IMG/VR virus record: IMGVR_UViG_3300043122_000207
Span: 96,001 to 160,000 of that record
Source of the DNA: a virus
Length of the DNA stretch: 64,000 nt
Strand: one strand, 5' to 3'
Under the pieces are notes generated by a model. That model did no database searches and was not told the DNA's origin. It saw only the letters and a program-made list of their open reading frames with translations. Shown piece after piece: positions 21,208 to 54,488 of the stretch. The translations under genes and the position numbers were made by a program. Numbering within the stretch: the first letter of the stretch is position 1; each line of letters starts with the position of its first letter.

Positions 21208-21233
21208 GCGAGGGTTAAACCCTCGCTTTTTTT
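21208..21233. terminator. Bidirectional terminator
   Basis: GCGAGGGTTAAACCCTCGC between convergent genes. Confidence 0.85.
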
Positions 21234-21771
21234 ATTCGAATTCTTTATATATCTTACTCCCTTGGATACCTTTATTTTTTTGGTATTTACCTTTATCATA
21301 TGTTTTTAATATAGGCCCCATTAACGGTTCATAATATATTTGACATATCTCTATATCAGGGTATAAAAACACTGGCTCTGTACAACTGAGCTCAAGTGTC
21401 CAATACCCCTCAAAGCCGTTATCCCCAAATCCTGCAGTTGCATGGATATCAATACCCAATCTACCGATAGAACTTCTTCCTTCTAATCCTGGTACCAAAT
21501 TGTGCGTTTTAGTGTACTCTCTTGTTCTACCTAGATATAATTTATTGGGTTTCATCAAAAAACCATTTTTTTTGTCTATTTTGAAGGTTTTTGTTTTCAT
21601 TTCTTTTCTCATGTCAAGTGGTTCTCCATTAATAGAATTTTCATAAACAGTTAATTCATTGTGTAACCTAAGATTATAACTGTTTGGGTTTAATCTCTCT
21701 AAATCAAAATCCTCTATATAAATATCACCTTCATCAATTCTATCTAAAATTCCACCATCCGATAATTTCAT
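21232..21771 (-). CDS. dcd: dCTP deaminase
   Basis: LNPNSYNLRL, EGRSSIGRLG, DNGFEGYWTLEL, ICQIYY and GKYQKNKG match the Dcd family. Confidence 0.93.
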   Translation of the reverse strand: MKLSDGGILDRIDEGDIYIEDFDLERLNPNSYNLRLHNELTVYENSINGEPLDMRKEMKTKTFKIDKKNGFLMKPNKLYLGRTREYTKTHNLVPGLEGRSSIGRLGIDIHATAGFGDNGFEGYWTLELSCTEPVFLYPDIEICQIYYEPLMGPILKTYDKGKYQKNKGIQGSKIYKEFE

Positions 21772-21789
21772 TAGTCTCCTCCTCTAATA

Positions 21790-22017
21790 TTAAATTAAGC
21801 CGTTAACATACATTGGGCAATTTTCTTTATCATTCGGTGATAACCTAGCATCACCAATATAATTACATTCATTTTTTTCCCCATTGTAAACACATTCTTG
21901 AACATTACATTTTATATCGTCATTAGTTTTGTTTTTCATTTTGTCCATCTCCTTTTTATTGAGTCTTTTAACCTTATCTTTCATAAGCAACATTCTCATT
22001 TCTAATTCTATATCCAT
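21790..22017 (-). CDS. Hypothetical small Cys-rich protein
   Basis: Start refined to 22017; CNVQECVY..C..C pattern. Confidence 0.55.
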   Translation of the reverse strand: MDIELEMRMLLMKDKVKRLNKKEMDKMKNKTNDDIKCNVQECVYNGEKNECNYIGDARLSPNDKENCPMYVNGLI

Positions 22018-22046
22018 TTTTATCACCATTTCATTGTTATCAAAAC

Positions 22047-22076
22047 AAAAAAATGTGTGGGGTTTTAACCCCACAT
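22047..22076 (-). terminator. Intrinsic terminator
   Basis: TGTGGGG..CCCCACA with T tract on the - strand. Confidence 0.75.
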
Positions 22077-22202
22077 CTTATAAGGAATTAATATGGAGAA
22101 AACAAGGCAAGGGATTAAGAGAAATACATAATGATCTCATCTAAGACACTTGGGATAGTTTCAATAAGTTCACAGTGTATTTTTATTTCTTAATCTACCT
22201 CT
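22047..22202 (-). ncRNA. Candidate late small RNA
   Basis: Late promoter at 22201-22213 (-), no RBS-led sense ORF, terminator at 22047-22076 (-). Confidence 0.3.
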
Positions 22203-22213
22203 AGTATATTGTT
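22201..22213 (-). promoter_or_regulatory. Late promoter AACAA-N5-TAG
   Basis: AACAATATACTAG on the - strand, identical to 33955-33967. Confidence 0.6.
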
Positions 22214-22240
22214 ATAGTAAAAATATTTTTATTTTATAGT

Positions 22241-22253
22241 AACAAGCTTATAG
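22241..22253 (+). promoter_or_regulatory. Late promoter AACAA-N5-TAG upstream of thyX
   Basis: AACAAGCTTATAG. Confidence 0.6.
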
Positions 22254-22274
22254 AAAATAATGGGAGGTAATATA

Positions 22275-23123
22275 ATGAATGTAAATATAGTTGGTAATGG
22301 AAAAGTTCATCTTTTATCCGGTGGTGGTAAATGTTTTACTGATGTTGTGGCTAGGTTTGTTGGGTCAGAAAGAAATGTTGAAGAAATAATAGGGAGCGAT
22401 TATAATAAAGAAATTATAAAAAACATTTTAGAATCTGGACATTTAGCATGTACCGAATTTGATCATTTTATATTTGGAGTTGAAGGATATGCAAGAGTAA
22501 CAGAAGTCCAGTTGATAAGGAAACGGTTGGCTTCATACATGATAAAATCTGGAAGAGTTGAAAAGAATGGGAAAAGAAAATTCGATGTTGTTGTTCCCGA
22601 AGATATCCTTTATCATAATACAGAATATAATTTAAAACCAGAGGATATATTTGTGGACGGTATACCTCTAGATGAAATTTTATATGATGCTGGTTATGAT
22701 AATGTAGGGAGAGAGGATATTACATTTGATTTTGATGGGTATGACCTATTATCTATGATGGAGAAGTGGTATGATGAAGGTGTTGAGTTGGGTCTTCCTG
22801 AAGAGAATTTAAGATATTTGAAACCACAAGCTACAGAATTTAAAGGTGTATTCAGTATGAATGCACATGGTCTTTTAGATTGGTTTAAAATCAGATGTTG
22901 TATGACAGCTCAAGATGGTGTTAGAGATATGGCTAATAAAACAAAAGATATCTGTAAGGATGTATTCCCAGATTTATTTAAGGATGCCGGTGCAAGTTGT
23001 GTTTCTTTAGGGTATTGTCCAGAAAACAGCAGACAACATGGAGCATGTAGTATCATAACCCATGAAGAAGTAAAAGAAATGATAAAGGAATCTAAAAGGT
23101 GTAATACAAAATGGGTGAAGTAG
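22275..23123 (+). CDS. thyX: Flavin-dependent thymidylate synthase
   Basis: GHLACTEF, signature RKRLASYMIKSGR (RHRxxSxxxxSxR with H to K), LRYLKPQA, WFKIRCCMTAQ; start refined from 22260. Confidence 0.88.
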   Translation: MNVNIVGNGKVHLLSGGGKCFTDVVARFVGSERNVEEIIGSDYNKEIIKNILESGHLACTEFDHFIFGVEGYARVTEVQLIRKRLASYMIKSGRVEKNGKRKFDVVVPEDILYHNTEYNLKPEDIFVDGIPLDEILYDAGYDNVGREDITFDFDGYDLLSMMEKWYDEGVELGLPEENLRYLKPQATEFKGVFSMNAHGLLDWFKIRCCMTAQDGVRDMANKTKDICKDVFPDLFKDAGASCVSLGYCPENSRQHGACSIITHEEVKEMIKESKRCNTKWVK

Positions 23124-23329: not shown

Positions 23330-23342
23330 AGGGGGATGAACC

Positions 23343-23802: not shown

Positions 23803-26800
23803 TTATTCGATGTCCATATCTTCTTTACACTGTTTTATAAGTTTTCTCATTGCACCTGTTAGGAGCCCTGAAATAAAAACAGAGTTAGTCATTCTTTTCA
23901 TAGGTGAATTTGGTGATAAAACCACATCAACATTTCTGCCAGTTTCAACACCTGTTGGCATCTTCTCGTCATCGTAAACTCTGGCATTAATGGCTTTTAA
24001 AGAGGTATAGTTTGTACCCTTATCACCAGTGGAGAAGATATCATAACTTTCCACATAATACTCAAATAAAACTTCATCTTTATTAAGTTTTATACCATTT
24101 ATTTTATCACCAACCTTTACCTTAGCATTTTTCTTACCGAAAAGAATTTTACTTTCAGTTGAACCATGTTCTTCCAACTGTTTAGCATTAGATTGTTTGT
24201 TATTTAATAAAAAATCATCTATTTTTCTTATATGGTATTGTATACTGTTTGAATATTCGTCAAGATTAGAAGTTCTATAAACTCTCATATCAACTATTCT
24301 ACCACCACGTTTTACTTTCTTTTCGTGTTGATTTAATTCTGATGACTCTACATTTAAAAACTCATCAACCTCTTCATCACCAGTCATGGATTCGAAAACC
24401 ATTAACGGTTCTCCAGATCTCACCTCTTTGAATTCTGCAACAGACTCATGTATTTTAGCATCATTTTTTAAAAGAACAGCATATTTTTTAATAACCTTTG
24501 TTGCTAATCTTTTTGTAAGTGATCTAGAAACCATAGTGGAATCCTCATAAGTCTCTGGTGCTGAATGTAATGCTAGAGTAACTATTGGACCAGGAGTAAA
24601 ATGAAGTGAATATCCGTCTGTTTTAAAGAAGTTTTTATTATATGCTAAAACATCGCCGGCTTTTATTTTCTTACCAACTTTAATTTTTGGCATCAACTTC
24701 ATTTCGTTAGATATATACATGCTTTTAGCTGAATTCTTTTCTACAGAATTTATAGGGAAACTATCTTCTGTTCCGTCAGAGTATTCCACGGTAATATAAT
24801 TTCCAGATATATTAGATACCACGCCGTCTTTTTTAGATTTTCTAACAAACTCATTTGACATATGTGCTAAAGCTTCATCTGCACCAGTGGAGACCATTAG
24901 GGGGTCTGCATCTTCAACACCCATAAGGTGGTTTGTCTGACTTAAATTCATAGCAGTTCTCGGTGCATCATCTTTTGAGGTGGTCATAGGAGTTAAAACT
25001 TCCGATATAGATAGGAGTGTTTTAGAATCAAGATCATCCACATCCTCCATATCTACGTTTTCAAAAAACCCTCTAGCAGATAATATCTTTGGGTCTACAC
25101 CAAAATGCTTTACAACACCAATGGAACCTGAGTAAGCAGAAGCCATAGAGAATTTACCATAGAAACTAGGATCATACAATCTCTTATCTGCTGTGTATGC
25201 TCTATCTAAGTTCAACCCAGATAGACCTTTCATTGAAGCAGATGAATATTTATCTATCTCTCTAGCTGGATTAACAGTAGAGTATTCCTCAAGGTTTGGT
25301 AATTCATATAACTTTTTAATTACAGCATTTTTATCAATTGAGAAAGTAGATTTAGTATTACCTCTTTTTTTAGCAACAGAGAATTTTTCATATTCATCAG
25401 CTAAAACATTAGCCATTGTCGCAGTTATTAATTCCTGATATCTAACCCTTGAATTTCTTATATCGATGTCCTTTTCATTTACAGCTGTGGATAATAGATA
25501 ATTAGCATAAATTAAAAGATCGGTGAATTCAGTGGGTAAGGAAAAATGAACCAATATATTTTTGGTTATTGCATCTATCATCGTATTATTGTAGTTATCA
25601 ATATATACTGGGAAATTATGACTACCCATTTCATCTTCTAATATATTTGCCATAACATCTTTATCTTCTAAGTCTGCTAGTTCGTATCCAGAAAGATCCA
25701 TTCTCTGCAAGTAACTCATAATAGATATATTAGCCATTGAATCATATTTATAAATTAAATATGTGTCTTCAAATTCAATTAGACCTTCTTTAAATTTATC
25801 TATCTTTGGTTTCTTTTCTTTAGTTTCTAACCTATAATCAATATCCATTTTTTCCATTAAAGAATCTAAGCCCATAAGATAAGTTAATATAAGAACTAAG
25901 GGTGCATCTTTACCCAGTATCTTTACAGAAGTATAAACGATAGTTTTTGGCACTGTGTTTTTTTCTTCAATATACTTATGGAGTTTTGGGATATATTCCT
26001 CTGAAACTTTTATCAGAAATTCTGATAAAACCATACCCTTATAATCACCATCGGTGGTTATGGTTTCTGTCTCTTTATTTAGGATTATCTCGTTACCTTC
26101 TATCTCACCTAGAACAATTTCATTTTCATTATCGTTTTCATACAACTGTTTTGATTTTTCATAATCGAATATAAGGTTAACGCTATTTGTGTTTACTTCT
26201 GATAAATATCTTGATATACCATTATATTCTCTAGTGGTTTCCCCTGTATTGAAGTTGGTTTCAAAAGCTGATTCAAAATTAATTATATCAGACTTATTTT
26301 CATCTTCAAACTTTTTAAAACCTCTGACAAATTTAGAATAAATAGGAGATAGGTATTTTCCACCTTTATATGTCATCCGTAATTTATTTCTATTTGAGGT
26401 TATAATAACGTACTCTTCATTTTTTGTTATGGGGTTACTCATGATCTGTCCTATGATATTTTTTTTAGAACCACCAAGATACACAAATTTATCATAAACC
26501 AATTTTGGTAATGTTATTTTCACATTGTGCCTATTACCCTCTAAATCTTTGAATTTCATTTTGATATCTTCAGTATAGTTTAACTCATCTGATGAGTCTT
26601 CTGTTTCTATTTTTTGAATGTATAAGGGGACATCTGTATTAGAGAAAGATTGTGCTATTTCTGTAATATCAAATTTCTTTAATTTTTCATCATATGTTTT
26701 ATTGAAGTTAACAAAAGAGTTCTCATTGTATTTATCTATGGCTGTTATATCATATGAATCTTTTGGTACATCTATATCCTTTATTTCTTCTAGAAGTTCA

Positions 26801-27927
26801 GAATACGACATATCATCTATTTCCACATTCATAACATCCTCGATATATTTTCTTTCTTTCTCACCCATTTCAGATACTCTCTCTAGGGCTTTAGTCCTTA
26901 CTTCCTTCAATATTTTAGATATCTCTTTTGCTTTTTCCGGTTCATCAGTCATATTAATTACTTTATCTAAAACTTCTTCCTCTATTAGCGGTACATCTTT
27001 TTTCTCTTCTTTATCTTCTTTTTCTTCTTTTTCTATTTCTCCTTCGGGGTCTATCTCTTCATCAGGAGAATCTTCATCTTCTAATGTATCTACAACAGCG
27101 TCAGTTACTTCGTGTTTTATCCTGTCGTTATCGTTTTCTTTAGTTTCTTCGTCATCATCGTCTGAAGTTTTAAGTCTTCTAAAACGCAACAGTATATCTT
27201 TTAAAAGATCACTCACATCAGAGTTACTCTCTTTAAGATATTCATCCAACCTCTCATCAAATGATAATTTAAATAATCCCTTTTCTGAAGTAAAGACAAT
27301 GGTTGTGTCTTTGAATACATCTTTTAAGTATTTTAAATCAGGATTATATTTTAAAACATAAAGAAAAAGGTATAGTAAATTGGGGGTTGTATAATCTGAT
27401 TTTTTGATATCCCCAACATTCACAATATCAGTATCAGATATATCGAATAAAATGTATTTGTCATCGTATTCTTCTGCTGAATTTATTATATCCTTTATGA
27501 TTGTCTTATAATATTCATCTACAAATTTGTAATTTTTTATATCTTTAGAAAAAATCATTTCATTTATTAACGATACATCATAAAAAAGATTTCTTTTAGA
27601 GTATTGAGATAAATTCCTATACATATATTTTATCTCGGGACAATTATCTTTAACATAATCGTATACTTTTTTCAAATCATTTTTCATATACACTCTCTGT
27701 GAAAGAATTTTTTCTTTATAAATTCTATCAACATAAATAGCTTTAACTCTTCTTAAGTGTAAATGATATGGTGAATTCTGTTGGGAATCATTTATGTACT
27801 TTAATGTATCATCAAAATTAGTGAACATAGGTATTATAAATCTACCTTTTGTATATGGTTTCTTTCTACTTAGAGCATAGATTCTTCTGCCTATTTTCAT
27901 CGTTGATAAGTCTTCCAAAAATATCAT
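23803..27927 (-). CDS. Virion RNA polymerase beta subunit, large fragment (phiKZ gp178-like)
   Basis: DAPRTAM..Q, YEDS, GDKGTNY..K, DVVLSPNS..KRM beta motifs; start refined to 27927 (GAGAGG RBS), downstream of late promoter 27957-27970. Confidence 0.9.
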   Translation of the reverse strand: MIFLEDLSTMKIGRRIYALSRKKPYTKGRFIIPMFTNFDDTLKYINDSQQNSPYHLHLRRVKAIYVDRIYKEKILSQRVYMKNDLKKVYDYVKDNCPEIKYMYRNLSQYSKRNLFYDVSLINEMIFSKDIKNYKFVDEYYKTIIKDIINSAEEYDDKYILFDISDTDIVNVGDIKKSDYTTPNLLYLFLYVLKYNPDLKYLKDVFKDTTIVFTSEKGLFKLSFDERLDEYLKESNSDVSDLLKDILLRFRRLKTSDDDDEETKENDNDRIKHEVTDAVVDTLEDEDSPDEEIDPEGEIEKEEKEDKEEKKDVPLIEEEVLDKVINMTDEPEKAKEISKILKEVRTKALERVSEMGEKERKYIEDVMNVEIDDMSYSELLEEIKDIDVPKDSYDITAIDKYNENSFVNFNKTYDEKLKKFDITEIAQSFSNTDVPLYIQKIETEDSSDELNYTEDIKMKFKDLEGNRHNVKITLPKLVYDKFVYLGGSKKNIIGQIMSNPITKNEEYVIITSNRNKLRMTYKGGKYLSPIYSKFVRGFKKFEDENKSDIINFESAFETNFNTGETTREYNGISRYLSEVNTNSVNLIFDYEKSKQLYENDNENEIVLGEIEGNEIILNKETETITTDGDYKGMVLSEFLIKVSEEYIPKLHKYIEEKNTVPKTIVYTSVKILGKDAPLVLILTYLMGLDSLMEKMDIDYRLETKEKKPKIDKFKEGLIEFEDTYLIYKYDSMANISIMSYLQRMDLSGYELADLEDKDVMANILEDEMGSHNFPVYIDNYNNTMIDAITKNILVHFSLPTEFTDLLIYANYLLSTAVNEKDIDIRNSRVRYQELITATMANVLADEYEKFSVAKKRGNTKSTFSIDKNAVIKKLYELPNLEEYSTVNPAREIDKYSSASMKGLSGLNLDRAYTADKRLYDPSFYGKFSMASAYSGSIGVVKHFGVDPKILSARGFFENVDMEDVDDLDSKTLLSISEVLTPMTTSKDDAPRTAMNLSQTNHLMGVEDADPLMVSTGADEALAHMSNEFVRKSKKDGVVSNISGNYITVEYSDGTEDSFPINSVEKNSAKSMYISNEMKLMPKIKVGKKIKAGDVLAYNKNFFKTDGYSLHFTPGPIVTLALHSAPETYEDSTMVSRSLTKRLATKVIKKYAVLLKNDAKIHESVAEFKEVRSGEPLMVFESMTGDEEVDEFLNVESSELNQHEKKVKRGGRIVDMRVYRTSNLDEYSNSIQYHIRKIDDFLLNNKQSNAKQLEEHGSTESKILFGKKNAKVKVGDKINGIKLNKDEVLFEYYVESYDIFSTGDKGTNYTSLKAINARVYDDEKMPTGVETGRNVDVVLSPNSPMKRMTNSVFISGLLTGAMRKLIKQCKEDMDIE

Positions 27928-27956
27928 ATAAACACCTCTCTTTAATTCATTGTGGT

Positions 27957-27970
27957 CTAATTGGATTGTT
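27957..27970 (-). promoter_or_regulatory. Late promoter upstream of vRNAP beta
   Basis: AACAATCCAATTAG on the - strand. Confidence 0.65.
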
Positions 27971-27991
27971 CTCGACGTTTTATATCGTAGA

Positions 27992-28018
27992 GAAAGAAAG
28001 GTGGGTTTTAAACCCACC
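27992..28018 (-). terminator. Intrinsic terminator of the lysis cassette
   Basis: GGTGGGTTTTAAACCCACC, T-rich tail on the - strand. Confidence 0.7.
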
Positions 28019-28023: not shown

Positions 28024-28563
28024 TTATTTTAATATAAGGTAAGTTATTCCAACACCTATACCAAAGTATAAGTATTTATTTATTTTGGATTGAATTCTCA
28101 ATCTTGTATTTTCTCTTTCTAATGATTCGTTTATCTCATCTAAATTTACGATAGTCTCATCCTGTGTTTCGGTTATGTCTTCTAATTTCATGGTGTACTG
28201 ATCATTAGCTATACGTTCTTCTTTTAATGATTCCTTTAACAATCGGTTTTCTTCCATTAAAGCACCAACCAATTCCATATAGTAATCTTTAATGGTGGTT
28301 AAATCGGCATTTTGTTTTTCCAGTGTATTTATGGTTCCTTTAAGTTCGTTAACTCTTTTATCATGTATCTCACGTTCTTCTTCTAGCATAGATTTTAATT
28401 CTTCATTATTTGTTTCTAATACACCGATTTCATTTCTTAATTTCACAATTTCCTCGGCTATCTTTTTCTCTTCCTCTTCGTTTAGTTCACCATGTGCAAA
28501 AACAACAGGACTAATTTGTATCGTCATTAAGAATACTATCAAAAGTATCGCTAACTTCTTCAT
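28024..28563 (-). CDS. Exported coiled-coil protein with C-terminal hydrophobic anchor (spanin-like partner)
   Basis: Signal peptide MKKLAILLIVFLM..VFA|HG, long heptad repeat, C-terminal YLYFGIGVGITYLILK; overlaps the upstream gene by about 50 nt. Confidence 0.5.
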   Translation of the reverse strand: MKKLAILLIVFLMTIQISPVVFAHGELNEEEEKKIAEEIVKLRNEIGVLETNNEELKSMLEEEREIHDKRVNELKGTINTLEKQNADLTTIKDYYMELVGALMEENRLLKESLKEERIANDQYTMKLEDITETQDETIVNLDEINESLERENTRLRIQSKINKYLYFGIGVGITYLILK

Positions 28564-29032
28564 CTGTGAGTTCAACATCCTCTTCCCTCACTTTCTTTAA
28601 TTCCTCTTCCTGTTCCTTTATTTTTTTGTCATTTTTTTCTCTTATTTCTTCAACTCTCTCAGCTGTTTCTTCAGCTAATTCTTTTTCTTTATCTATAATT
28701 TTTCCCCGTTCTTTAACCTGTTTTCTTAATCGATCTATCTTATCTTGGTCCTCTTTTATTATGCCCGTTTTTTTAGCTGCCTCTTTTAATTCTTTTTGGT
28801 TTTCTTTTATAATAGTTTCTTTTTCTTCCTTTTTCTTTTTAGCTTCTTTTTTTAGTTCTTTAGTCTTTTCTTTCTTTTCCTCTACTTTCTTTTTTCTTTT
28901 CTCTCTCATTTTTTTACCATCACTATTTAATGACACACTAATTATGATGGACAAAACAATGGTTAACCCATAAAGAATATATTCTTTGTATTCAGAGAGT
29001 TTAGCAAGAAATAATTTAAATTTAGTTTTCAT
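28511..29032 (-). CDS. Inner-membrane spanin-like protein (TM plus charged coiled coil)
   Basis: Single N-terminal TM YILYGLTIVLSIIISVSL followed by a K/E coiled coil; follows a holin-like gene. Confidence 0.55.
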   Translation of the reverse strand: MKTKFKLFLAKLSEYKEYILYGLTIVLSIIISVSLNSDGKKMREKRKKKVEEKKEKTKELKKEAKKKKEEKETIIKENQKELKEAAKKTGIIKEDQDKIDRLRKQVKERGKIIDKEKELAEETAERVEEIREKNDKKIKEQEEELKKVREEDVELTDEEVSDTFDSILNDDTN

Positions 29033-29045: not shown

Positions 29046-29354
29046 CTATTTTTTCTTATTTTTTAAATATTCGTGTGCTTCTTCTTTGAAATATTTAGCA
29101 CCCGTACCTACAACTATCAAAGAAGAAATCCATTTAAGAGAATTGAAAAATGAAGTATCTTCTATAAGTCCCTCTTTCAGGAAAAGAAATAAAAAAAATA
29201 CTATTGCAGTTAAAATAACATCATTTCTTATATCATCTTTTCCTAGTGTGGAAATTATAACTCTTTTGAGTATACTAACCCAGCTTGTGTTTTCATTATA
29301 GTTTTCTATAGGGTTTTCTTCAACCTTCTTTTTTTCTTCATCCATTATGTTCAC
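29046..29354 (-). CDS. Putative holin
   Basis: About 100 aa, two TM segments, highly basic C-terminus (KNKKK), late promoter at 29371-29384. Confidence 0.55.
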   Translation of the reverse strand: MNIMDEEKKKVEENPIENYNENTSWVSILKRVIISTLGKDDIRNDVILTAIVFFLFLFLKEGLIEDTSFFNSLKWISSLIVVGTGAKYFKEEAHEYLKNKKK

Positions 29355-29370: not shown

Positions 29371-29417
29371 CTATAGTGTTTGTTTCCTTTGACCCCCAAA
29401 TGAAACAATTATAATAG
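29371..29417. promoter_or_regulatory. Divergent pair of late promoters
   Basis: AACAAACACTATAG (-, 29371-29384) and AACAATTATAATAG (+, 29404-29417). Confidence 0.65.
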
Positions 29418-33007: not shown

Positions 33008-33020
33008 AACAAAATATTAG
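33008..33020 (+). promoter_or_regulatory. Late promoter AACAA-N5-TAG
   Basis: AACAAAATATTAG. Confidence 0.6.
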
Positions 33021-33954: not shown

Positions 33955-33967
33955 AACAATATACTAG
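33955..33967 (+). promoter_or_regulatory. Late promoter driving an ORF-less unit
   Basis: AACAATATACTAG. Confidence 0.6.
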
Positions 33968-35894: not shown

Positions 35895-35907
35895 CTAAAA
35901 GTTTGTT
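35895..35907 (-). promoter_or_regulatory. Late promoter AACAA-N5-TAG
   Basis: AACAAACTTTTAG on the - strand. Confidence 0.6.
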
Positions 35908-39810: not shown

Positions 39811-39824
39811 AACAATCATCATAG
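39811..39824 (+). promoter_or_regulatory. Late promoter of the vRNAP beta C operon
   Basis: AACAATCATCATAG. Confidence 0.65.
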
Positions 39825-40930: not shown

Positions 40931-40941
40931 AGGAGGAAATT

Positions 40942-43735: not shown

Positions 43736-43747
43736 ATTATATATTAT
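43736..43747 (+). promoter_or_regulatory. Early promoter motif of the operon containing nvRNAP beta C
   Basis: ATTATATATTAT. Confidence 0.7.
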
Positions 43748-43790: not shown

Positions 43791-44618
43791 ATGAATGTTA
43801 ATTTAAAAAATTTAATTACTGATTTAAATGGAAAAAGAATATTTTATCTAAGTGATGAAGATTTAGGAGAAGAAAAAATGTTGAAACCCGATAATATCGA
43901 TATTGAACCACCACCTCTATTAAGGGACACAAAAAACAATATAGAGGATTTGGATATTGATGGTTTAAATAAGATACCATTTTATGAGACCATAGGTGGT
44001 GCCTTAAGATATTACGGTGAAGACTTTGATGGTGAGAAATTATATGTTTACTCACCAGTTAAAGAATTTGAAAATGTCAACATAATAGAGAATGAGGACT
44101 TAGTTAAGATTACACCAATGTTTAAATATCTTGATGAACTTTGGGTTATGGAAAATGTTAAAGTTAAATGTTTAGGTATAATAAAGATGTTTAAAAACGG
44201 GGATGATTGGGATTGGAAATGGGTTGGTTATTCTTTAGAGATGGGTGAATTAGTAAGGGAAAATATAGATAAGAATGAACCTGAATACTTAGAGAAGATA
44301 CCAACATACATGAAAAAACTGGTTGAAAAAATGAAACTAAATAAGATACCAAAAAAAGAGATGGTTCATAAAATTTTAAATAACCCAAAACTTGATATAC
44401 CAATGACAGATACAGGAATAAAACCTGGAGACTTTGTTCCTATTGTGAAAATAAATATGTTGACTGGTAGACACTTTACGATGTATTATAAAATCAAATA
44501 TATAGAATATGAATCTAAAGTGGTCGTTTATTATAAATCACCTTGGACATATGAGTATGAAGAGGATATATTTGAAACTATAAACAATGGTTACATTTAT
44601 ATACGTTTATACAAATAA
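43791..44618 (+). CDS. Early protein with divergent ADP-ribosyltransferase-like N-domain (tentative)
   Basis: FYLS..L.P, IPFYETIGGAL, LYVY, ELWVMENV..KCLG pattern recalled from phage ART-like proteins. Confidence 0.35.
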   Translation: MNVNLKNLITDLNGKRIFYLSDEDLGEEKMLKPDNIDIEPPPLLRDTKNNIEDLDIDGLNKIPFYETIGGALRYYGEDFDGEKLYVYSPVKEFENVNIIENEDLVKITPMFKYLDELWVMENVKVKCLGIIKMFKNGDDWDWKWVGYSLEMGELVRENIDKNEPEYLEKIPTYMKKLVEKMKLNKIPKKEMVHKILNNPKLDIPMTDTGIKPGDFVPIVKINMLTGRHFTMYYKIKYIEYESKVVVYYKSPWTYEYEEDIFETINNGYIYIRLYK

Positions 44619-44631
44619 GGAGTTGATTGTT

Positions 44632-46647: not shown

Positions 46648-46688
46648 ATTATATATTATTAGAGTGAAGCAAGTTGAATATTAAAAAA
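46648..46688 (+). repeat. Early promoter plus leader, 41-bp exact duplicate of 9343-9383
   Basis: Identical 41-mer. Confidence 0.9.
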
Positions 46689-46702: not shown

Positions 46703-47353
46703 ATGTTAAGTATGAGTTTAGTTATTAAGAATTTGGTGAAAAGCTTAAACGTTGATGAGAAGAATGGTAATGTTTATCTCGCAGATGGTAATGGTAAAGG
46801 CAATAGTCAAGAGGGTGACAAGTTTGTGAATGTTGTTAAAGGAACAACATATCCAATTGAGGGTTTAACTTTTATCGAGGGTAGCGATGATAATTACATG
46901 ATTCCTGATGATATGTCTGGTATGTATTTGGGTAAAGGTAACAAAGTAACAGGTTTACCTGATGATGATTATCTTATCGGTAATTGGAAGCTGGCATCAG
47001 TAAATCCTAAACACTATGAAAGAAATACCAGAAGTACAGCTGGGGGAAGAAGTAGTGGTGGAAGAAAACCTAAGGTTACTATCAAAGAAAAGTTTAAAAG
47101 AAGTAAATCAGATAGTAGACCGACCGATGCTATTAAAGCGACACTGAATAGTATTATTCCATACGAAACTAATGATCTCACAAAAGGTGAGACAAAAGAT
47201 TTAGAAAACATCGTGAATAATGTAGAGAAGAACACAGCATCTTATGATGACATGTTCTACTTATTAGATATTCTCGGTATTCGTAATGAGGTTGTTATTG
47301 GAGGTAAAAACCCTAATGGTGTATCCATGGGGAAAATTTATGTCAGAGTATAA
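46703..47353 (+). CDS. Early protein, tandem paralogue A (possible C-terminal HTH-like domain)
   Basis: YMIPDDMSGMYLGKGNKVTGLPDDDYLIGNW aligns with the next gene. Confidence 0.7.
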   Translation: MLSMSLVIKNLVKSLNVDEKNGNVYLADGNGKGNSQEGDKFVNVVKGTTYPIEGLTFIEGSDDNYMIPDDMSGMYLGKGNKVTGLPDDDYLIGNWKLASVNPKHYERNTRSTAGGRSSGGRKPKVTIKEKFKRSKSDSRPTDAIKATLNSIIPYETNDLTKGETKDLENIVNNVEKNTASYDDMFYLLDILGIRNEVVIGGKNPNGVSMGKIYVRV

Positions 47354-47375
47354 TTAAAAAAAGGGGGTCTTTGTT

Positions 47376-47981
47376 ATGTCATTGATAATCAAGGATATAA
47401 ATAGATGTATTGTTGGAAAAAATAAATTTAATTTAGTCTATACAAAAGATAATGATGCAGCAGGGATTAAAGAAGACCTCCTGTTAAATACAAGGACAGA
47501 ACAAATTAAATCAAAAGATGAGATGACTTGTATTTATACAGAAGATGGGGATTGTTACTTATTCCCAAAGGATGAAGAAAAAAAATATATATCTAAAAAG
47601 GGTAAGGTTTCGCGATTACCAAAAGACGTATATTTGATTGATAATTGGCTCAGGACATCATCATCGGACACTGATATATTAAAGATGGTTGGTGATGATT
47701 ATGTTATTACAGAAAAATTCCATCCAGCCGGTGGTGATGATGAGCTAACACTTCTAGCAAAAAATGTTATGAATCAGGTTATTCCAATAGTTATAAAAAT
47801 ACAGGGTAAATCTGATAAGACATGGCTTGATGCTAGAATGAAAGAAATAGAAAAGAATTCAATTTCGGCAAAGATGTTTCTGCAACTTTGTCAGACTTTG
47901 AATCTTCATGTCGACATGAGGGTTTATAGAGAAGAATTTGAAGGGGAAGAATTCATTGAGCAGAAAAGAAAATTAATTTAA
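47376..47981 (+). CDS. Early protein, tandem paralogue B
   Basis: YLFPKDEEKKYISKKGKVSRLPKDVYLIDNW aligns with the previous gene. Confidence 0.7.
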   Translation: MSLIIKDINRCIVGKNKFNLVYTKDNDAAGIKEDLLLNTRTEQIKSKDEMTCIYTEDGDCYLFPKDEEKKYISKKGKVSRLPKDVYLIDNWLRTSSSDTDILKMVGDDYVITEKFHPAGGDDELTLLAKNVMNQVIPIVIKIQGKSDKTWLDARMKEIEKNSISAKMFLQLCQTLNLHVDMRVYREEFEGEEFIEQKRKLI

Positions 47982-47994
47982 AGGAGATGGTAAA

Positions 47995-48618
47995 ATGAAT
48001 GGAAATAGAAATCAGATATTCAATGACATTATTGATGCGATGGAATACCACATCGATAATAATTTATCGGGCGGTGTGATAAGCAATGATCGAATGGAAG
48101 AGATTAATATGATGCTCTTCAATCACTTAGCCAAAGGATCCAATAACCGAGATAGACAATTGGTTATTAATCGAAAGGTTAGAGGAAGAAGAGGTGAATC
48201 TGATAAAGATTTTAAGCTGAGGTTGAGGGTTGACGTTGATGAAAGTCTGCGTTCCCGTAGACCACATGTTGATAGGTCAAGGATTGCTGAAAGAGAATCC
48301 AATGACCTCAGAGAGGTATTTGAAAGATACACAATGAGTGTTTCAGAAATGGACAATAAAAGAGACATTGTTCAGCTCTATGTTAATACTTACATGTGTA
48401 TCGAAGATGGGTTTGCGGATATGTTTGAAGAACTATTCCAAGATGGGAAGATGTCAGACCCAGGGTATCTCGATATGATTGCCAGTGGTGAAGTGTTCTA
48501 TGAGTATGGTGGTTTTAGAATATTCCCAATGGCGAATGAATCGACATGGTCTTTAAGTTATGAAACTACACCATTAATTTCAACTGGAATCAAAAATGAT
48601 TTTGGTTGGAATAATTAG
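47995..48618 (+). CDS. Hypothetical early protein
   Basis: 207 aa, AAGGAGATGGT RBS, Arg-rich central segment. Confidence 0.7.
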   Translation: MNGNRNQIFNDIIDAMEYHIDNNLSGGVISNDRMEEINMMLFNHLAKGSNNRDRQLVINRKVRGRRGESDKDFKLRLRVDVDESLRSRRPHVDRSRIAERESNDLREVFERYTMSVSEMDNKRDIVQLYVNTYMCIEDGFADMFEELFQDGKMSDPGYLDMIASGEVFYEYGGFRIFPMANESTWSLSYETTPLISTGIKNDFGWNN

Positions 48619-48628
48619 TGTGGTGTAT

Positions 48629-48662
48629 AAAATAGCGGTTGTTATGGCCGCTATTTTTTTCT
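48629..48662 (+). terminator. Intrinsic terminator/attenuator between 47995 and nvRNAP beta N
   Basis: AAATAGCGG..CCGCTATTT plus T tract. Confidence 0.75.
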
Positions 48663-48689
48663 TTAATATAGAAAAAGGGAGATGATATT

Positions 48690-50111
48690 GTGGCAAGCGA
48701 TATGACCAATAGACTATATGAGTTGATGCAAGAAAAGATTGTAAACGATTCTATATTGGATCCTGAATTAAGGGATATGATACCAGTCGTAATTGAGACA
48801 TTAAAGAAACTACCAAAGTTAACAATGGTGGGGTATAGGAAAGAAAGAATAAATCCTAGAAAACAATTTGAAATCGAAATGGAAGATTCAATAATCAAGA
48901 AAACAAACAATACAAAAAGAAATAATGTTGAGTATTCCATTGACTTAGAAGAAAGCAAAGTGGATATTTTAAGATGTTATTTTATAATAACACCAGAGAT
49001 TATTTCTGACTCTAAAAAAGATGTCGCAATTACAAATACCAAATATAAGCTTCTCAGAGTTATGGATAGGTTGGATGAAGTTTTTGAAAGTGAACTTTTA
49101 ACCGAGTTATTAGAGAGTAAAGATAGAGTATCAACTGAAAATGTGGATCCTGAAAACGAAGATGTAAATATGGTATTAGAAGTTCCATTTTTAGTGCCGA
49201 GGTTAGTTGATGGGCAATATTTTCTATTAAACAACAGAAGATTTTTCTCTGCTTTCTATTTACAAAGAGAAGCTAGGGTTACCAATGAAGGGAAACTGGA
49301 GATAGTGAATATTAACCCTGGTGCGTATAATGGGGAAGATGAAATACTTTCTTATATCTATCTCACAGATGAAGAATCAGAAGAAGAAGTTATAGAATAT
49401 TATTTCTTCGGTAATAAGCTGAATCCTTTTTGTTTCTTACCAAACAATATAAAACTCCATAAAATGTTTCCCGAGTATTTTTCATATAGAGCAAGGGTTT
49501 ATAATGATAAAAGGAATAAAATAGAACCCGAAACTAAAGAAGGAAAAATACTTTTGAGAACATACAATAAATGGAGAAACGAGGATAGGGCTAAGTTTAG
49601 AAGGGCTAGAAAGAAATCTTTAGAAGGTGATGAAGAAAACGATTATGTTTATAAGTTGATCAGTAAAATAAATCCCGATGAGATAGTGGATGCAATAAAT
49701 GCTGTTTTGAATCCGGGTGACCAAATTATAATGTTTGATATCCATAAATCTTTAAGGAAGTTTTTAAAGATTAATATAATAGATTCATTCCCTGGCTTTA
49801 GAAAAAGACAGCAACCTAGCATGGTAAAGAAAAGATATAGGATAAATCCTGAAACCGTAGTAATGATAATGAAAATGAAAAAACAATATACATCAACTGT
49901 GGTTCAGGCAGCTAACACTATAGATTTATTTCCTAGGTTCACTTATATTTCTGAAATGGAAAGTGGTTCTAAAATAAAAGATAAGAACTTACGAAAATTC
50001 AGAAAAAAACATGTCGGTTTAATTGACCCTATAGCCACATCCACATCTGAGAATTTGGGTTTATCTGGTGGTATGGTTTTTTCTGTTCCAGATAAACATA
50101 TAATGAGGTAG
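48690..50111 (+). CDS. Non-virion RNA polymerase beta subunit, N-terminal part (phiKZ gp123 / AR9 gp105-like)
   Basis: LVPRLVDGQYFLLNNRRF and C-terminal HVGLIDPIATSTSENLGLSG (fork-loop region of beta). Confidence 0.85.
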   Translation: MASDMTNRLYELMQEKIVNDSILDPELRDMIPVVIETLKKLPKLTMVGYRKERINPRKQFEIEMEDSIIKKTNNTKRNNVEYSIDLEESKVDILRCYFIITPEIISDSKKDVAITNTKYKLLRVMDRLDEVFESELLTELLESKDRVSTENVDPENEDVNMVLEVPFLVPRLVDGQYFLLNNRRFFSAFYLQREARVTNEGKLEIVNINPGAYNGEDEILSYIYLTDEESEEEVIEYYFFGNKLNPFCFLPNNIKLHKMFPEYFSYRARVYNDKRNKIEPETKEGKILLRTYNKWRNEDRAKFRRARKKSLEGDEENDYVYKLISKINPDEIVDAINAVLNPGDQIIMFDIHKSLRKFLKINIIDSFPGFRKRQQPSMVKKRYRINPETVVMIMKMKKQYTSTVVQAANTIDLFPRFTYISEMESGSKIKDKNLRKFRKKHVGLIDPIATSTSENLGLSGGMVFSVPDKHIMR

Positions 50112-50232: not shown

Positions 50233-50245
50233 AACAATTCTTTAG
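50233..50245 (+). promoter_or_regulatory. Late-type promoter upstream of sbcC
   Basis: AACAATTCTTTAG. Confidence 0.55.
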
Positions 50246-50266: not shown

Positions 50267-52870
50267 GTGGAAATTATGTGGCTTAGATATATAAGGTTAG
50301 AAAACTATACTTTTTTTAATTCGGGCATGGATAAAAATGTGGTGGAAATGGAATTTGATAAAGAGGATGATATTGTAGTTATAAGTGGTGATAATGGGTC
50401 TGGTAAAACAACATTCACTAAACTTGCTCACAGTCCTTTACCGAAGATAGATAATAACTATGGTATAATTAAAAATCATGCTGGTAAAAAAATTCAAATA
50501 TACGTTGATGAAAAAAATGACAGAGAAATAGAAGTTATCCATAACTTCAATCCTAAAAAGGATACACATTCATGTGATTCTTTTATGAACATTATAGAAG
50601 ACGGGGAGAAAAAGGAACTAAACAATAATGGCAGTGTTAGGTCTTTTTATGATCTTGTAGAGGAGTATTTTGGTATAACAAGAAACAATGAAGATGTTTT
50701 ATATACGGCTGTTAAGGAATTGGGTTTAGTGACTAAGACAGCAGCTGAAAGAAGAGAGTATGTTAAAGGATTTATAAATGGTCTTGAAGAAATAGATGAT
50801 AGGTATAAGGTAGTTAATGAAAAATACTCTATAATAAAAAAAGAGCTTAAAGCTAATGAGATTAAATTAAAAAAATATCCAGATAGTGACGAGATGAAAT
50901 CAGAGATAAAAGAAATGAAAAAAATGGTTACTATCAAAAAATCTGAATTAAAAAATATCCATAAAAAGATGGGTACTATAGAAAATATATCTGAAGACGA
51001 GTTAAAAGAAATAAAAGAAACAAAAAAGAAATATCAAAAGGATATATCTGATGCAAAAGAGGCTATAAAGATATTGGGAAAATTGGATTCAAATAAATCT
51101 TTAAAATATAATGAAGATGAATATAAAGGATATCTCAAAAGAAATAAAAAGAAACTTAAAGATATTGAAGAAGAAATAAAATCAAAAAATAAAGCTCTTA
51201 TAAATTTAAAGAAAGACTCGAAGGGTTTGGTTAAATTAAAAGAGGATAGACAATACGTTGAGTCTTTAGGTGAGAGATTAAACGAAGTTGATGACGAGAT
51301 AAAGGGTATCAAAACAGATTATACTTATGAGGAATACTCTGAGATTAAAACCTTTATTAATAATGTCATCACATCCTTAGATATGTTATCTAATAATATT
51401 ATTGAGATTGGTTCATTAAAAAGAGATTTAAAAAAAGAATTGGAAAAAAATAAAAAAGATATTGAAGATTTGACTAAAGAACAAAATGAAATCAAAAAGA
51501 ATATGGAGTCTATATCTGGTTCCTATGGTGGTTTTTTTGATGAAAATATAAAACCACATCCTAAGTGTGAATTTGAAAGTTGTGATTTAAGACAGGCTTT
51601 TAATGGATACATCACCAATATGGATGAAATAAATGAGTTGTCTACCAAACTTAATTTGATTTCTGAGAAGATAGAAAACATTGAAGAAGAAACACAAATT
51701 ATAAATAATGATCTTCAGTGGAAAGAAAGATATGATAGATTAGTTTCAGAGCTAGAAGATAGAGATACATTATTAAAAAAGGATGAAGATTTAAAAAATC
51801 TAACAAAAGACAAAATTTTTAATACTTTAAAAATAGGGAAATATTCTCAATTAGAAAATAAGATCTCTGTAAAATTTGATAAGTTAGATAAGTATTTTAA
51901 ATATTTGGATGATAAAAAAAGATATGAGTCTTTTAATTCTGTTTCTGAAAAGGAGAATGATCTTTTAGATAGGTATGAAAAAGAAAAGGAAAAGATTTTA
52001 GAAAAAAGAGAAGAATTAAATGAGAAGAAAAAAGAAATAGAAAAGAAGGTAAAAAAATATAAAGATAAAATAGATAAATTATCTATTGGTTTTAATAATA
52101 ATCTGGTAGAGAATTTAAATATGGAGTCTTTAAAAGAAATAATAAAAGAGCGAGAACTGTCATTGGAAAAATTGGATAAACAGTTAGAAGAAATCCAAAA
52201 GAAAATAGAGAGTAAAAAAGCTTTAGAAAAAAATGAGAAAACTATCAATGAAGAACTGAAGACATATGAAAAAAGAGTAGAAAAACTCAATGAAGATTTA
52301 ACCATTATGAAACATCTGGAGAAAGAATTCGTTCGATTAAATAAAGAAGAAAAGATAACTTATGCTATAAGAGAAACACTTAGAATACATTTACCTATAA
52401 CTTTAATTGATTCTTTTCTTGAAAGTGTAAAGCTATATGCTAATAAGTTTTTGAAAGATGCTAATTTAGAATATAGGGTTTCTGATTTTGAGATATCAGA
52501 AAACACATTTAGGATTGAATCTATGAAAAAAAATCATATTTATACCGATGTTTCAAATATGAGTGACGGCGAAACATGTTTTATGTCTTTAGCAATATCG
52601 TTTGCCATACAGGTTGTTTTAGATTCATTAAACAATTATAAAATTGTGGCTTTAGATGAAATGGACTCTCTTTTAAAAGATTCAAGAAAGAAAAAATATA
52701 TGGATATAGTTATGTCTCAGTTTTCTAACTTCGATTTGTCACAGATGTTTATTGTGACACATAATGAGTATTTTAATGATTTAAATAATGTATCCCATAT
52801 ATGTCTTAAGGATTCGACTGTAGATAAATTTGATAAATCAAAGAAGATAATTTACCATTATGACGATTGA
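50267..52870 (+). CDS. sbcC: SbcC/Rad50-like SMC ATPase
   Basis: GDNGSGKT, long coiled coil with central CEFESC hook, signature MSDGE, Walker B VALDE, H-loop VTH. Confidence 0.9.
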   Translation: MEIMWLRYIRLENYTFFNSGMDKNVVEMEFDKEDDIVVISGDNGSGKTTFTKLAHSPLPKIDNNYGIIKNHAGKKIQIYVDEKNDREIEVIHNFNPKKDTHSCDSFMNIIEDGEKKELNNNGSVRSFYDLVEEYFGITRNNEDVLYTAVKELGLVTKTAAERREYVKGFINGLEEIDDRYKVVNEKYSIIKKELKANEIKLKKYPDSDEMKSEIKEMKKMVTIKKSELKNIHKKMGTIENISEDELKEIKETKKKYQKDISDAKEAIKILGKLDSNKSLKYNEDEYKGYLKRNKKKLKDIEEEIKSKNKALINLKKDSKGLVKLKEDRQYVESLGERLNEVDDEIKGIKTDYTYEEYSEIKTFINNVITSLDMLSNNIIEIGSLKRDLKKELEKNKKDIEDLTKEQNEIKKNMESISGSYGGFFDENIKPHPKCEFESCDLRQAFNGYITNMDEINELSTKLNLISEKIENIEEETQIINNDLQWKERYDRLVSELEDRDTLLKKDEDLKNLTKDKIFNTLKIGKYSQLENKISVKFDKLDKYFKYLDDKKRYESFNSVSEKENDLLDRYEKEKEKILEKREELNEKKKEIEKKVKKYKDKIDKLSIGFNNNLVENLNMESLKEIIKERELSLEKLDKQLEEIQKKIESKKALEKNEKTINEELKTYEKRVEKLNEDLTIMKHLEKEFVRLNKEEKITYAIRETLRIHLPITLIDSFLESVKLYANKFLKDANLEYRVSDFEISENTFRIESMKKNHIYTDVSNMSDGETCFMSLAISFAIQVVLDSLNNYKIVALDEMDSLLKDSRKKKYMDIVMSQFSNFDLSQMFIVTHNEYFNDLNNVSHICLKDSTVDKFDKSKKIIYHYDD

Positions 52871-52878
52871 GTTCTATG

Positions 52879-52890
52879 ATTATATATTAT
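52879..52890 (+). promoter_or_regulatory. Early promoter motif upstream of the sigma-like subunit
   Basis: ATTATATATTAT. Confidence 0.7.
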
Positions 52891-52937
52891 ATATGCGAAA
52901 TGAAAAAATTATTTAATCAATATAAGGAGTTGATTTT

Positions 52938-54488
52938 ATGGAGATGGATAGAAAAGTTTATTTTGCAGTTAGGAATGAAAAAGAATTAGAGTTTAATGTT
53001 TATCAAAGGAGTTATATTTTTCATGCAAGTCAAAAGAAGTCTTATGATGGTAAGACTATAAAATCGATTGAGGCAACATGTTCTCAATTAAACCATTTTA
53101 TTCTTTATTTAGAAAGAAGAATGGAAGATGAATCAATAGATGAATCAGAAGGTGATTTAGGATACTTTATAGTTAAGATGATGCGTCTAAATGATTTATT
53201 AGATAGAAATAATATGGATCAAGCAGTTTGGGAGGAAGTAAAAGAAAAGTCAACCAGATTTTATGATGAAAAGCTGAAGTATTTTAAAAGAGTTGTGACT
53301 GAAGAGTTAGTAAACGATGTCCACTTGGGTACTCTGATATCAGATTATGTTTATTCAAATACACTTAAAAACCTAACTTCAGCAGATAACATAAAAGAGA
53401 AATTGTTTTATAGTGATATTCATATTTATCATTGTCTGTCGGTATATACTAAAATATTGTATTTTATGTATTTTAGGTTTTCTGATGAGACATCTTATAA
53501 AAGAATATCTAAATCAATAACTATAGAACTTTCATCTTTAATGAATCAGATGGCTTTGGATATCTTTCCTAAGGAATATACTAGAATCAATAATATTTCT
53601 TTTATGGATAGATTGTTCAATTATATTCAATTCCAGAACAGAATAAATTCTAGAACACACACTAAATTACAGGATAAGTTTTCTGCTATAGGTTATAGTG
53701 AGGAGTCACTTTCGATTAGTATGTTAGATAGTGTTATATCTTCCCTTAAAAATTTTGGTGTGATAACTTATAAAAGAAGTAGAGGTAAAAGAAAAACTTT
53801 TGATATATTTAAACACAAGTATGAAAATTGGGGTTATGTTGCTAAGAACACAGCAGCAATCATTTCCTCTACAACCAAAAGAACTGTGAGTTATATGTTT
53901 GCTCAGACTACACCGTATGTTATAAATAAGAAATCACCGACTGTTATGGTTGATGGTGTTTCAGAAAGTAGTAAGTACGAGATACTTTTAGAAAAGAAAA
54001 ACAAAGAACACTATCAGGATATGAAAAGGATTAAACGATATATTATCAATGATTGTTATGAGAATATATCAGCTGAAAGTCGTGATGAGATTGATAAACT
54101 ATTGGAGGGTGGCACAGATATTAGACATCAATTAAATAAATTTATGGTGTCTTTATTTTTGGAGCAAAATTATGAAGCCAATGTTTTGGATCTTATAACC
54201 TATGAGGAGTTTTTAACTATATTATTTAGGGTTTATGAAAGAATGGATAAATACTATAGAATAAAACATGCTTTGATTTCCCCAGTGGGTAATCGGTTAA
54301 ACGGTATTAGAGTAAGAGAAAAAGATTTGGAAGGTTTATTATTTTATAGGAACTGTAATAAACCTAAAACCATAAAGATATTAAATAAGATAGTTGGTTA
54401 TTCATATACATTCAATCGTGATGTTGTTAGAAATTTAAATATTAAAGATGAAATGATAGATTTTATTGCGGATGGTCTTGTGATATGA
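52938..54488 (+). CDS. Candidate nvRNAP promoter-specificity (sigma-like) subunit, phiKZ gp68 / AR9 gp226-like
   Basis: 516 aa all-helical ORF with its own early promoter (52879); size and internal pattern match my recollection of the family; no catalytic motif. Confidence 0.6.
   Translation: MEMDRKVYFAVRNEKELEFNVYQRSYIFHASQKKSYDGKTIKSIEATCSQLNHFILYLERRMEDESIDESEGDLGYFIVKMMRLNDLLDRNNMDQAVWEEVKEKSTRFYDEKLKYFKRVVTEELVNDVHLGTLISDYVYSNTLKNLTSADNIKEKLFYSDIHIYHCLSVYTKILYFMYFRFSDETSYKRISKSITIELSSLMNQMALDIFPKEYTRINNISFMDRLFNYIQFQNRINSRTHTKLQDKFSAIGYSEESLSISMLDSVISSLKNFGVITYKRSRGKRKTFDIFKHKYENWGYVAKNTAAIISSTTKRTVSYMFAQTTPYVINKKSPTVMVDGVSESSKYEILLEKKNKEHYQDMKRIKRYIINDCYENISAESRDEIDKLLEGGTDIRHQLNKFMVSLFLEQNYEANVLDLITYEEFLTILFRVYERMDKYYRIKHALISPVGNRLNGIRVREKDLEGLLFYRNCNKPKTIKILNKIVGYSYTFNRDVVRNLNIKDEMIDFIADGLVI

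Follow-up and report, generated by a model that had tools for sequence, protein, structure and literature searches.

AR9-type early and late promoters in a large uncultured phage that encodes the thymidylate synthase ThyX

The 64-kb stretch of viral DNA analysed here (the window) carries genes for a virion RNA polymerase (vRNAP) and a non-virion RNA polymerase (nvRNAP), intergenic motifs that resemble the late promoters of phage AR9, and genes for the thymidylate synthase ThyX and a dCTP deaminase (Dcd). It spans bases 47771-111770 of a linear virus record of 146,374 bp (the 146-kb contig; GC 30.8%, ~82% complete by estimate). A metagenome contig of 194,731 bp (the parent contig) encodes proteins identical to those of the 146-kb contig, and near-identical DNA is present in shale-gas and subsurface metagenomes; none of the sequencing runs listed with this DNA is an RNA run. 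The source is an uncultured phage of ~195 kb that belongs to the lineage of AR9, PBS1, phiR1-37, S6 and JD-Fnp. For its large RNA polymerase (RNAP) subunit (23803-28017), the top matches come from Fusobacterium phages JD-Fnp1/4/6/7 (33% identity); phiR1-37, Staphylococcus phage S6 with its relatives, and PBS1/AR9 rank next. The known phages whose DNA contains deoxyuridine (dU) belong to this same branch of large phages with RNAP genes. The RNAP genes and the primase gene of the window are the following.

15824-17194, + strand: nvRNAP beta'N subunit, homologue of AR9 gp270 (PDB 7s00_d / 7s01_d, 2e-13; phrog_2987; NGDHDGD catalytic motif)
23803-28017, - strand: large beta/beta'-like subunit of the vRNAP (phrog_3148, 8.6e-125)
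44587-46629, + strand: nvRNAP betaC subunit, homologue of AR9 gp089 (phmmer 3.3e-31 to gp089; PDB 7s00_C, 1.4e-27)
48690-50111, + strand: probable nvRNAP betaN subunit, gp105-like (weak evidence: a weak, collinear phmmer match to AR9 gp105)
52938-54488, + strand: sigma-like specificity subunit of the nvRNAP, gp226/gp68 family (assigned from fold, profile and synteny)
54485-55486, + strand: DNA primase, homologue of AR9 gp225 (BLASTP 1e-11; phrog_19847), immediately following the sigma-like gene, an order shared with AR9

The nvRNAP of AR9/PBS1 is composed of gp270, gp154, gp105 and gp089 with the specificity subunit gp226 (PDB 7S00, 7S01, 7UM0, 7UM1). The product of 48690-50111 shares a PxLxDxQYFxxN motif with AR9 gp105, and its search against the PDB gave no match. 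The order UvsX gene, early promoter, betaC gene is kept as in AR9. Assignment of 44587-46629 to betaN, suggested by a match to phiKZ gp71, was rejected on account of its GNKGV motif and its match to AR9 gp089, which identify betaC. The phiR1-37 homologue of the large vRNAP subunit, g099, carries a structural-protein annotation.

The 516-residue product of 52938-54488 had been singled out in a first-pass annotation of the sequence as a gp226/gp68-like candidate, and its fold, the profile comparison and synteny all bear this proposal out. The protein has no match in Pfam, PHROGs or NCBIfam, nor by phmmer against the PDB, tblastn against phages or BLASTP against AR9 gp226. A profile search of the whole sequence library retrieved 17 relatives; the 17-sequence family profile was negative in an hmmsearch of the AR9 open reading frames (ORFs). 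An AlphaFold2 model built from a 21-sequence alignment reached a mean predicted local distance difference test score (pLDDT) of 80.8, while the one built from five sequences (pLDDT 49) was unusable. Foldseek comparison of the former with the PDB returned just three significant chains, namely chain A of 7S01 and of 7UM0 (~7e-7; 6.6e-7 for 7s01_A) and phiKZ gp68 (8que_B, 9.4e-5). VIA-align superposed the model on AR9 gp226 (7s01_A) over its full length, with Z 21.4 and 403/463 residues aligned, to be compared with Z ~5 for sigma70 region 2. The carboxyl-terminal domain alone matched gp226 with Z 10.8 and a root-mean-square deviation (rmsd) of 3.4 A, and the corresponding domain of phiKZ gp68 with Z 9.5 and rmsd 4.3 A over 156 residues. 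Of the two proteins, AR9 gp226 is clearly the nearer to the candidate. Profile-profile comparison by hhalign was collinear over 342 columns against 11 gp226 homologues (E 1.2e-4, 55% probability) and gave E 4.2e-6 (87% probability) against the two most divergent gp226 relatives (P0038/P0039). The sigma-like gene and the primase gene both lie downstream of an early promoter, here and in AR9, and the related 199-kb contig L007 codes for a 50%-identical sigma-like protein in the same arrangement of sigma-like gene, primase gene and early promoter. From the predicted structure, the profiles and the gene order, membership of 52938-54488 in the gp226 family can be considered established, with the particularity that its identity to gp226 is only ~9% and that no BLAST or HMM match connects the two.

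Homologues of the sigma-like subunit (84% identity) and of ThyX (65%) are also found on short contigs deposited as metagenome-assembled genomes of 'Candidatus Woesearchaeota archaeon', which are probably mis-binned phage contigs.

The late promoter of AR9 has the consensus 5'-AACA-N6-T(A/G)-3', and transcription from it begins at the purine following the conserved T. The window has the same core and spacing in a longer form of 13-14 nt, AACAA-N5/6-TAG, in which the gap counted from AACA can be N6 or N7. The first-pass annotation had listed 13 such sequences before late genes and the vRNAP genes; 14 were counted in 21232-54488, of which 11 are intergenic. The window as a whole holds 19 matches, to be compared with 9.4 +/- 2.9 in shuffled sequences. 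Placement is far stronger evidence than this count. The intergenic share of the 146-kb contig is 5.6%, and within it fall 22 of the 31 AACA-N6-TAG sites of the contig (21 of them sense-upstream, within 150 nt) and 17 of the 40 AACA-N7-TAG sites (16 sense-upstream, within 150 nt). Taken together, 37 of the 39 intergenic copies are aimed at a start codon no more than 150 nt away, mostly at a distance of 12-78 nt, and the fifth base of the AACA(A) element is A in 36/39. Spacings of N4, N5, N8 and N9 yield just 0-1 intergenic sites on the whole contig, and one-base changes anywhere in AACA or TAG lower the intergenic count to 0-6. Inside genes AACA-N6-TAG occurs 9 times, compared with a mean of ~27 for other spacings, a roughly threefold depletion that is expected if stray copies are harmful. 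An AR9-type late promoter system, enriched between genes and oriented sense-upstream, is therefore real in this phage, as first proposed. AACA-N7-TAG does not share the intragenic depletion of AACA-N6-TAG, and promoters of the two spacings may be unequal in strength or have different requirements.

A second, early-type motif, TTATATATTAT, occurs in at least 15 intergenic sense-upstream copies on the contig. It has nine consecutive bases in common with the annotated AR9 early promoter AAATATATATTAT, including the core ATATATTAT. Early-type motifs are located upstream of the nvRNAP genes (15824, 43791/44587, 46703-50111 and 52938), whereas the motifs found before the tail sheath gene (1495-3492), the vRNAP operon, 39854-41622, the SbcC/SbcD-like genes, and the Dcd and ThyX genes are of the late type. 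This split of nvRNAP genes from vRNAP and structural genes is the one described for AR9. A few genes have both motif classes upstream, with motifs at 9317 and 9344 (span 9317-9354) and at 38658 and 38763 (span 38658-38776); they resemble the continuously expressed gene class of AR9 (PMC7598289). The promoters assigned to the genes discussed here are listed below.

15751-15761, + strand: early-type promoter TTATATATTAT with the AR9 early-promoter core, before the nvRNAP beta'N gene
22201-22213, - strand: late-type promoter AACAATATACTAG for orf94 and Dcd
22241-22253, + strand: late-type promoter AACAAGCTTATAG for ThyX, ending 22 nt before the probable start 22275
29371-29384, - strand: late-type promoter of the operon 29046-29354, 28511-29032, 28024-28578, with the vRNAP gene last
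29404-29417, + strand: late-type promoter for 29430-30899, divergent from 29371-29384
33008-33020, + strand: late-type promoter for 33058-33618
35895-35907, - strand: late-type promoter for 34393-35853
38763-38776, + strand: late-type promoter for 38849-39733, with the early-type motif 38658-38668 upstream of the same gene
39811-39824, + strand: late-type promoter for 39854-40930 and RNAP subunit 40942-41622 (phrog_3233)
43737-43747, + strand: early-type promoter before 43791-44618 and the betaC gene, right after the UvsX-like gene, as in AR9
46649-46659: early-type motif heading the operon that ends in the probable betaN gene 48690-50111
50233-50245, + strand: late-type promoter for the SbcC-like gene 50267-52870
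52880-52890, + strand: early-type promoter before the sigma-like subunit gene; AR9 gp226 is likewise annotated with an early promoter
58002-58014, - strand: late-type promoter for the SbcD-like exonuclease gene 56408-57964

From these sequence data we infer that the AACA-N6/7-TAG motifs are transcription start signals used by the nvRNAP, which would read them on the template strand. They might instead mark sites of RNA processing, bind a regulator or serve another polymerase as promoters; in favour of this, the N7-spaced class has no precedent in AR9. Their strict orientation and distance to start codons, their frequent position after a terminator hairpin and their avoidance inside genes are what a promoter calls for, and they match exactly the experimentally mapped late promoter of AR9 (PMC5312081, PMC5449584). 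The complementary distribution of early and late motifs over nvRNAP and vRNAP genes, as in AR9, speaks for promoters as well, and a role other than nvRNAP promoter is scarcely to be expected.

Back-to-back divergent pairs of late-type motifs are common (in the window, 22201-22253 and 29371-29417), and the parent contig has a 16-bp palindrome, AACAAATTTGTTAG (L091 9958-9973), which reads on both strands and seems to be two overlapping divergent promoters. A perfect late-type motif on the - strand (27957-27970) lies 47 nt inside the 5' end of the annotated ORF of the large vRNAP subunit (GTG at 28017); the true start of this subunit may lie further downstream, or the motif may be an internal promoter. 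Between the late-type motif at 33955-33967 and the next gene there are ~225 nt that contain no ORF (33955-34192).

The divergent Dcd and ThyX units, each behind a late-type motif, bear on the nature of the phage DNA.

21232-21771, - strand: Dcd, a dCTP deaminase of the dUTPase fold (Pfam DCD, 1.4e-36; TIGR02274, 125 bits, above the 92.8 cut-off)
21790-22074, - strand: orf94, 94 residues, no family match; it opens the Dcd transcription unit and is separated from Dcd by 18 nt
22275-23123, + strand: ThyX, flavin-dependent thymidylate synthase (Pfam Thy1, 1.9e-26); the ORF opens at 22260

The initial description, Dcd together with an intact-looking ThyX under a late-type promoter, is borne out by the family scores and by the motifs at 22241-22253 (+) and 22201-22213 (-). 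The true start of ThyX is probably 22275, because a Shine-Dalgarno sequence, GGGAGG, is found at 22262-22268 and homologues begin at that methionine; the possibility that ThyX has no ribosome-binding site was rejected on finding this sequence and the internal start. The protein keeps the equivalents of Thermotoga maritima Q75, R78, R80, S88, R90, R147 and R174. Its subfamily features a carboxyl-terminal extension with six conserved cysteines (C213, C214, C232, C247, C253 and C263 in ORF numbering), which could form a metal or Fe-S site.

The best PDB matches of Dcd are the bifunctional enzymes of Mycobacterium tuberculosis (2qxx, 2qlp) and Methanocaldococcus jannaschii (1ogh), ahead of Escherichia coli Dcd. 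The protein is closest to the dUMP-forming, bifunctional Dcd:Dut enzymes, and its product is probably dUMP. A Dcd-ThyX cassette recurs in haloarchaeal viruses. The 146-kb contig also codes for a thymidylate kinase (Tmk). A search for a dUTPase elsewhere in the genome, suggested by the first-pass annotation, found a canonical one on the parent contig: a protein of 270 residues with all five motifs (Pfam 1.1e-13; PDB 3h6x, 7e-25), whose operon lies behind a late-type motif. Both promoter classes are present on the related contigs L007 and L092, and L092, the more distant relative, has ThyX, DCD and an RNAP beta'N gene. The thymidylate genes are thus a stable trait of the group, since L092 has ThyX and DCD too.

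This gene set differs from that of the related phages. Searches that covered Thy1, ThyA, Tmk and DCD found none of these four in AR9, phiR1-37, S6 or JD-Fnp4, and the dCTP deaminase found in AR9, phiR1-37 and S6 belongs to the PF00383 zinc-deaminase family, of which no member was found on this contig. The dU gene sets of PBS1, DSS3_VP1 and phiR1-37 combine such a zinc-family Dcd with Dtm or Dtt (PMC12697855). Here dCTP deaminase activity is likewise predicted, but the enzyme is from another family and is probably dUMP-forming, no enzyme degrading dTMP or dTTP was found, and thymidylate synthase, thymidylate kinase and dUTPase are present. The HAM1-type Dtt (PF01725) and YfbR-type Dtm (PF12917) families have no match on the 146-kb contig. 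PF06941, the family of PBS1 Dtm, has none either but misses AR9 too, and is uninformative. For Ugi/SAUGI, PF06106 gave a 14-bit match in a 475-residue frame only and AR9 Ugi gave E > 0.2, results that are uninformative for such small proteins. No uracil-DNA glycosylase (UDG; PF03167) and no inhibitor of dUTPase or UDG was found. The suggested search for a dTMP phosphatase or Ugi gave no match in the part of the genome covered, with searches that would miss small or variable proteins.

The DNA could be fully dU as in AR9, with ThyX, Tmk and dUTPase repurposed, inhibited or employed outside phage DNA synthesis, and the promoters read as uracil. The nearest characterised relatives of the RNAP are dU phages, a dCTP deaminase is encoded, and the promoter consensus agrees with that of AR9 at both positions where AR9 depends on uracil (PMC5449584), the two A positions of the motif being as strictly conserved here as in AR9. 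These points are set against a canonical five-motif dUTPase. A dU-DNA is unlikely because such an enzyme, made by the phage itself, would destroy its precursor. The similarity of Dcd to dUMP-forming enzymes, the presence in ThyX of every residue that is invariant in its subfamily, the absence of Thy1, Tmk and DCD from AR9, phiR1-37 and S6, and the lack of any detected PF00383 Dcd or Dtt- or YfbR-type enzyme degrading dT all point the same way, and fully dU DNA is held to be very unlikely. The sequence content indicates instead that the DNA most likely contains thymine, because ThyX, Tmk, dUTPase and a dUMP-type Dcd are present and the PF00383 Dcd is absent, in which case the nvRNAP would read 3'-TTGT-5'. 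Two elements of the initial description are not supported by this comparison. The label 'uracil-reading' is probably wrong, as the gene content (dUTPase, ThyX, Tmk, no PF00383 Dcd) argues for thymines at -11/-10. Nor does the reading of Dcd as a pointer to dU-DNA find support, the protein being a dUTPase-fold enzyme near the dUMP-forming Dcd:Dut proteins, encoded beside ThyX, and not a member of the zinc family of PBS1, phiR1-37 and S6 (PMC12697855).

Several points weigh against thymine DNA. The TIGR02170 score of ThyX, 71.7, is below the equivalog cut-off of 87.9, and the protein has RKR where that of T. maritima has RHR (H79 replaced by Lys). The RKR motif is a trait of a whole large ThyX subfamily from Halanaerobiales, Christensenellaceae, Desulfitobacteriaceae, Desulfovibrio and others (50-58% identity), and the phage protein retains every residue that is invariant in the subfamily alignment. 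The low score is offset by five bacterial genomes (Desulfovibrio piger ATCC 29098, Desulforamulus putei DSM 12395 and three complete chromosomes) in which the subfamily orthologue, 50-56% identical, is the sole Thy1 gene and ThyA is absent; being their only thymidylate synthase candidate, the subfamily must supply dTMP. The gene searches covered about 4/5 of the parent contig (all but ~40 kb), and a small or fast-evolving Ugi, dUTPase inhibitor or PBS1-type Dtm would escape them. In AR9, thymine at template position -11 or -10 abolishes binding (PMC5449584). Exclusion of T at -10 is due to V206 in the 2.1bis helix of gp226, and the V206G protein accepts T, while the discrimination of uracil at -11 comes from packing of the DNA backbone and not from a single side chain (PMC9209446). 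By analogy, a conserved binding mode might exclude T at -11 even here. The counterpart of V206 in the sigma-like subunit is, moreover, ambiguous, and one of the candidate residues, the aliphatic L226, would not obviously admit the methyl group of thymine.

Modelling of 52938-54488 on the uracil pockets of gp226, suggested at the outset, succeeded as to the fold (Z 21.4) but did not place the V206 counterpart reliably. Three alignments put it at L226, S257 or K243, none of them valine. In hhalign against the whole gp226 family, SFMDRLF pairs with KYSDVVI and V206 falls on L226, and a weaker alignment leads to S257. In the alignment with the highest score, DRLF is matched to the conserved NKLY of helix 2.1 and no gap occurs up to the conserved turn at G252, which places V206 at K243; this is the best-supported mapping, at a position that is variable among relatives. 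Two divergent gp226 relatives have Ser or Thr at the V206 position. A residue other than valine there would fit loss or absence of uracil selectivity, without proving it.

The first-pass annotation had left three options: a sigma-like factor that reads thymine, a U/T mosaic, or a ThyX timed so that packaged and replicating DNA differ. The first is by far the best supported, and the other two found no positive evidence. In a mosaic or timer, U-rich early-replicated DNA would switch on the late promoters and late synthesis of dUTPase, ThyX and Tmk would then yield T-rich packaged DNA. The location of the dUTPase, Dcd and ThyX genes behind late-type rather than early-type promoters is compatible with this, as is the early class of the primase and nvRNAP genes. 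The scheme nevertheless lacks a supply of dUTP in the early phase, because the Dcd gene also belongs to the late class, and no inhibitor of dUTPase or UDG was found. It needs several parts that were not observed, and infecting T-DNA would have to replicate before any late transcription. Late-type promoters also drive SbcCD, a function of ordinary DNA metabolism, so that the class comprises everything after early. A timer or mosaic is held to be very unlikely, a shade less credible than fully dU DNA. It is hardly probable either that late transcription is confined to newly made DNA that contains U transiently, with a sigma-like subunit that still needs U at -11/-10 and packaged DNA that contains T. 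The most doubtful alternative is a hypermodified base derived from thymidine, made after dTMP/dTTP synthesis and read by the RNAP; it is a mere possibility raised by the phage's own dTMP supply, for which no positive evidence was found. No ThyA homologue, and hence no dUMP hydroxymethylase, was seen, and there are no recognisable thymidine-hypermodification genes among the annotated genes, which cover ~4/5 of the genome.

The explanation that we favour, and regard as probable, is that the two-polymerase programme of AR9 operates here in a thymidine-making phage with thymine DNA. The injected vRNAP would read early promoters of the TTATATATTAT type, which would drive the nvRNAP genes (beta'N, betaC, probable betaN and the sigma-like subunit 52938-54488) together with the primase gene. 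The nvRNAP holoenzyme would then read AACA(A)-N5/6-TAG and transcribe the structural, vRNAP, SbcCD, Dcd, ThyX and dUTPase genes. dUMP would be formed from dCTP by Dcd and from dUTP by dUTPase, converted to dTMP by ThyX and phosphorylated to dTDP by Tmk. The element recognised by the sigma-like subunit and the RNAP core would be 3'-TTGT-5', which corresponds to AACA on the coding strand, in place of the 3'-UUGU-5' that AR9 needs.

To our knowledge, no multisubunit RNAP other than the AR9 nvRNAP is known to read a -10-like element on the template strand. The uracil requirement of AR9 is thought to let its nvRNAP ignore host DNA. The phage studied here is like AR9 in its late-promoter core, in the early-promoter core ATATATTAT, in the early/late split of its genes, some of which have both promoter classes, in the full-length structural match of the sigma-like subunit and in the gene order around it. 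It differs in having dUTPase, ThyX, Tmk and a dUTPase-fold Dcd and no PF00383 Dcd, so that thymine DNA is expected, whereas AR9 strictly needs U at -11/-10. PhiKZ (PDB 7OGP, 8QUE, 9RJS) is likewise a jumbo phage with thymine-containing DNA and a five-subunit nvRNAP that includes gp68, but its late promoters consist of TATG at the start site without a -10-like AACA element, and it builds a nucleus-like shell. The literature searched links AR9-type late promoters to uracil DNA, and its representative of the jumbo phages with T-DNA is phiKZ, whose promoter is different; it describes no AR9-type promoter system in a thymidylate-making phage.

A natural holoenzyme that tolerates T is mechanistically plausible because the engineered V206G exchange, a small change in the 2.1bis helix of AR9 gp226, lets the holoenzyme accept T at -10 (PMC9209446); V206G fixes -10 only, while here T would have to be present at -11 as well as at -10. 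If the favoured explanation is correct, template-strand recognition of AACA would be independent of uracil (its ancestral state would need a rooted phylogeny), and the phage would provide a natural counterpart to V206G for how T fits at both positions. The means by which such a phage keeps its RNAP from transcribing host DNA would then become a question, the longer motif being one possibility. Both promoter classes can be read straight from the sequence.

Two further features were observed. An intein that contains a LAGLIDADG homing endonuclease interrupts the ribonucleotide reductase (59084-62515), in which ATP-cone, RNR alpha and B12-type insertion domains are recognised. Before the window, near the Tmk operon, long GC-richer non-coding stretches (G000:C1:30418-30601 and 31346-31468) lie between gene fragments and look like structured RNA.

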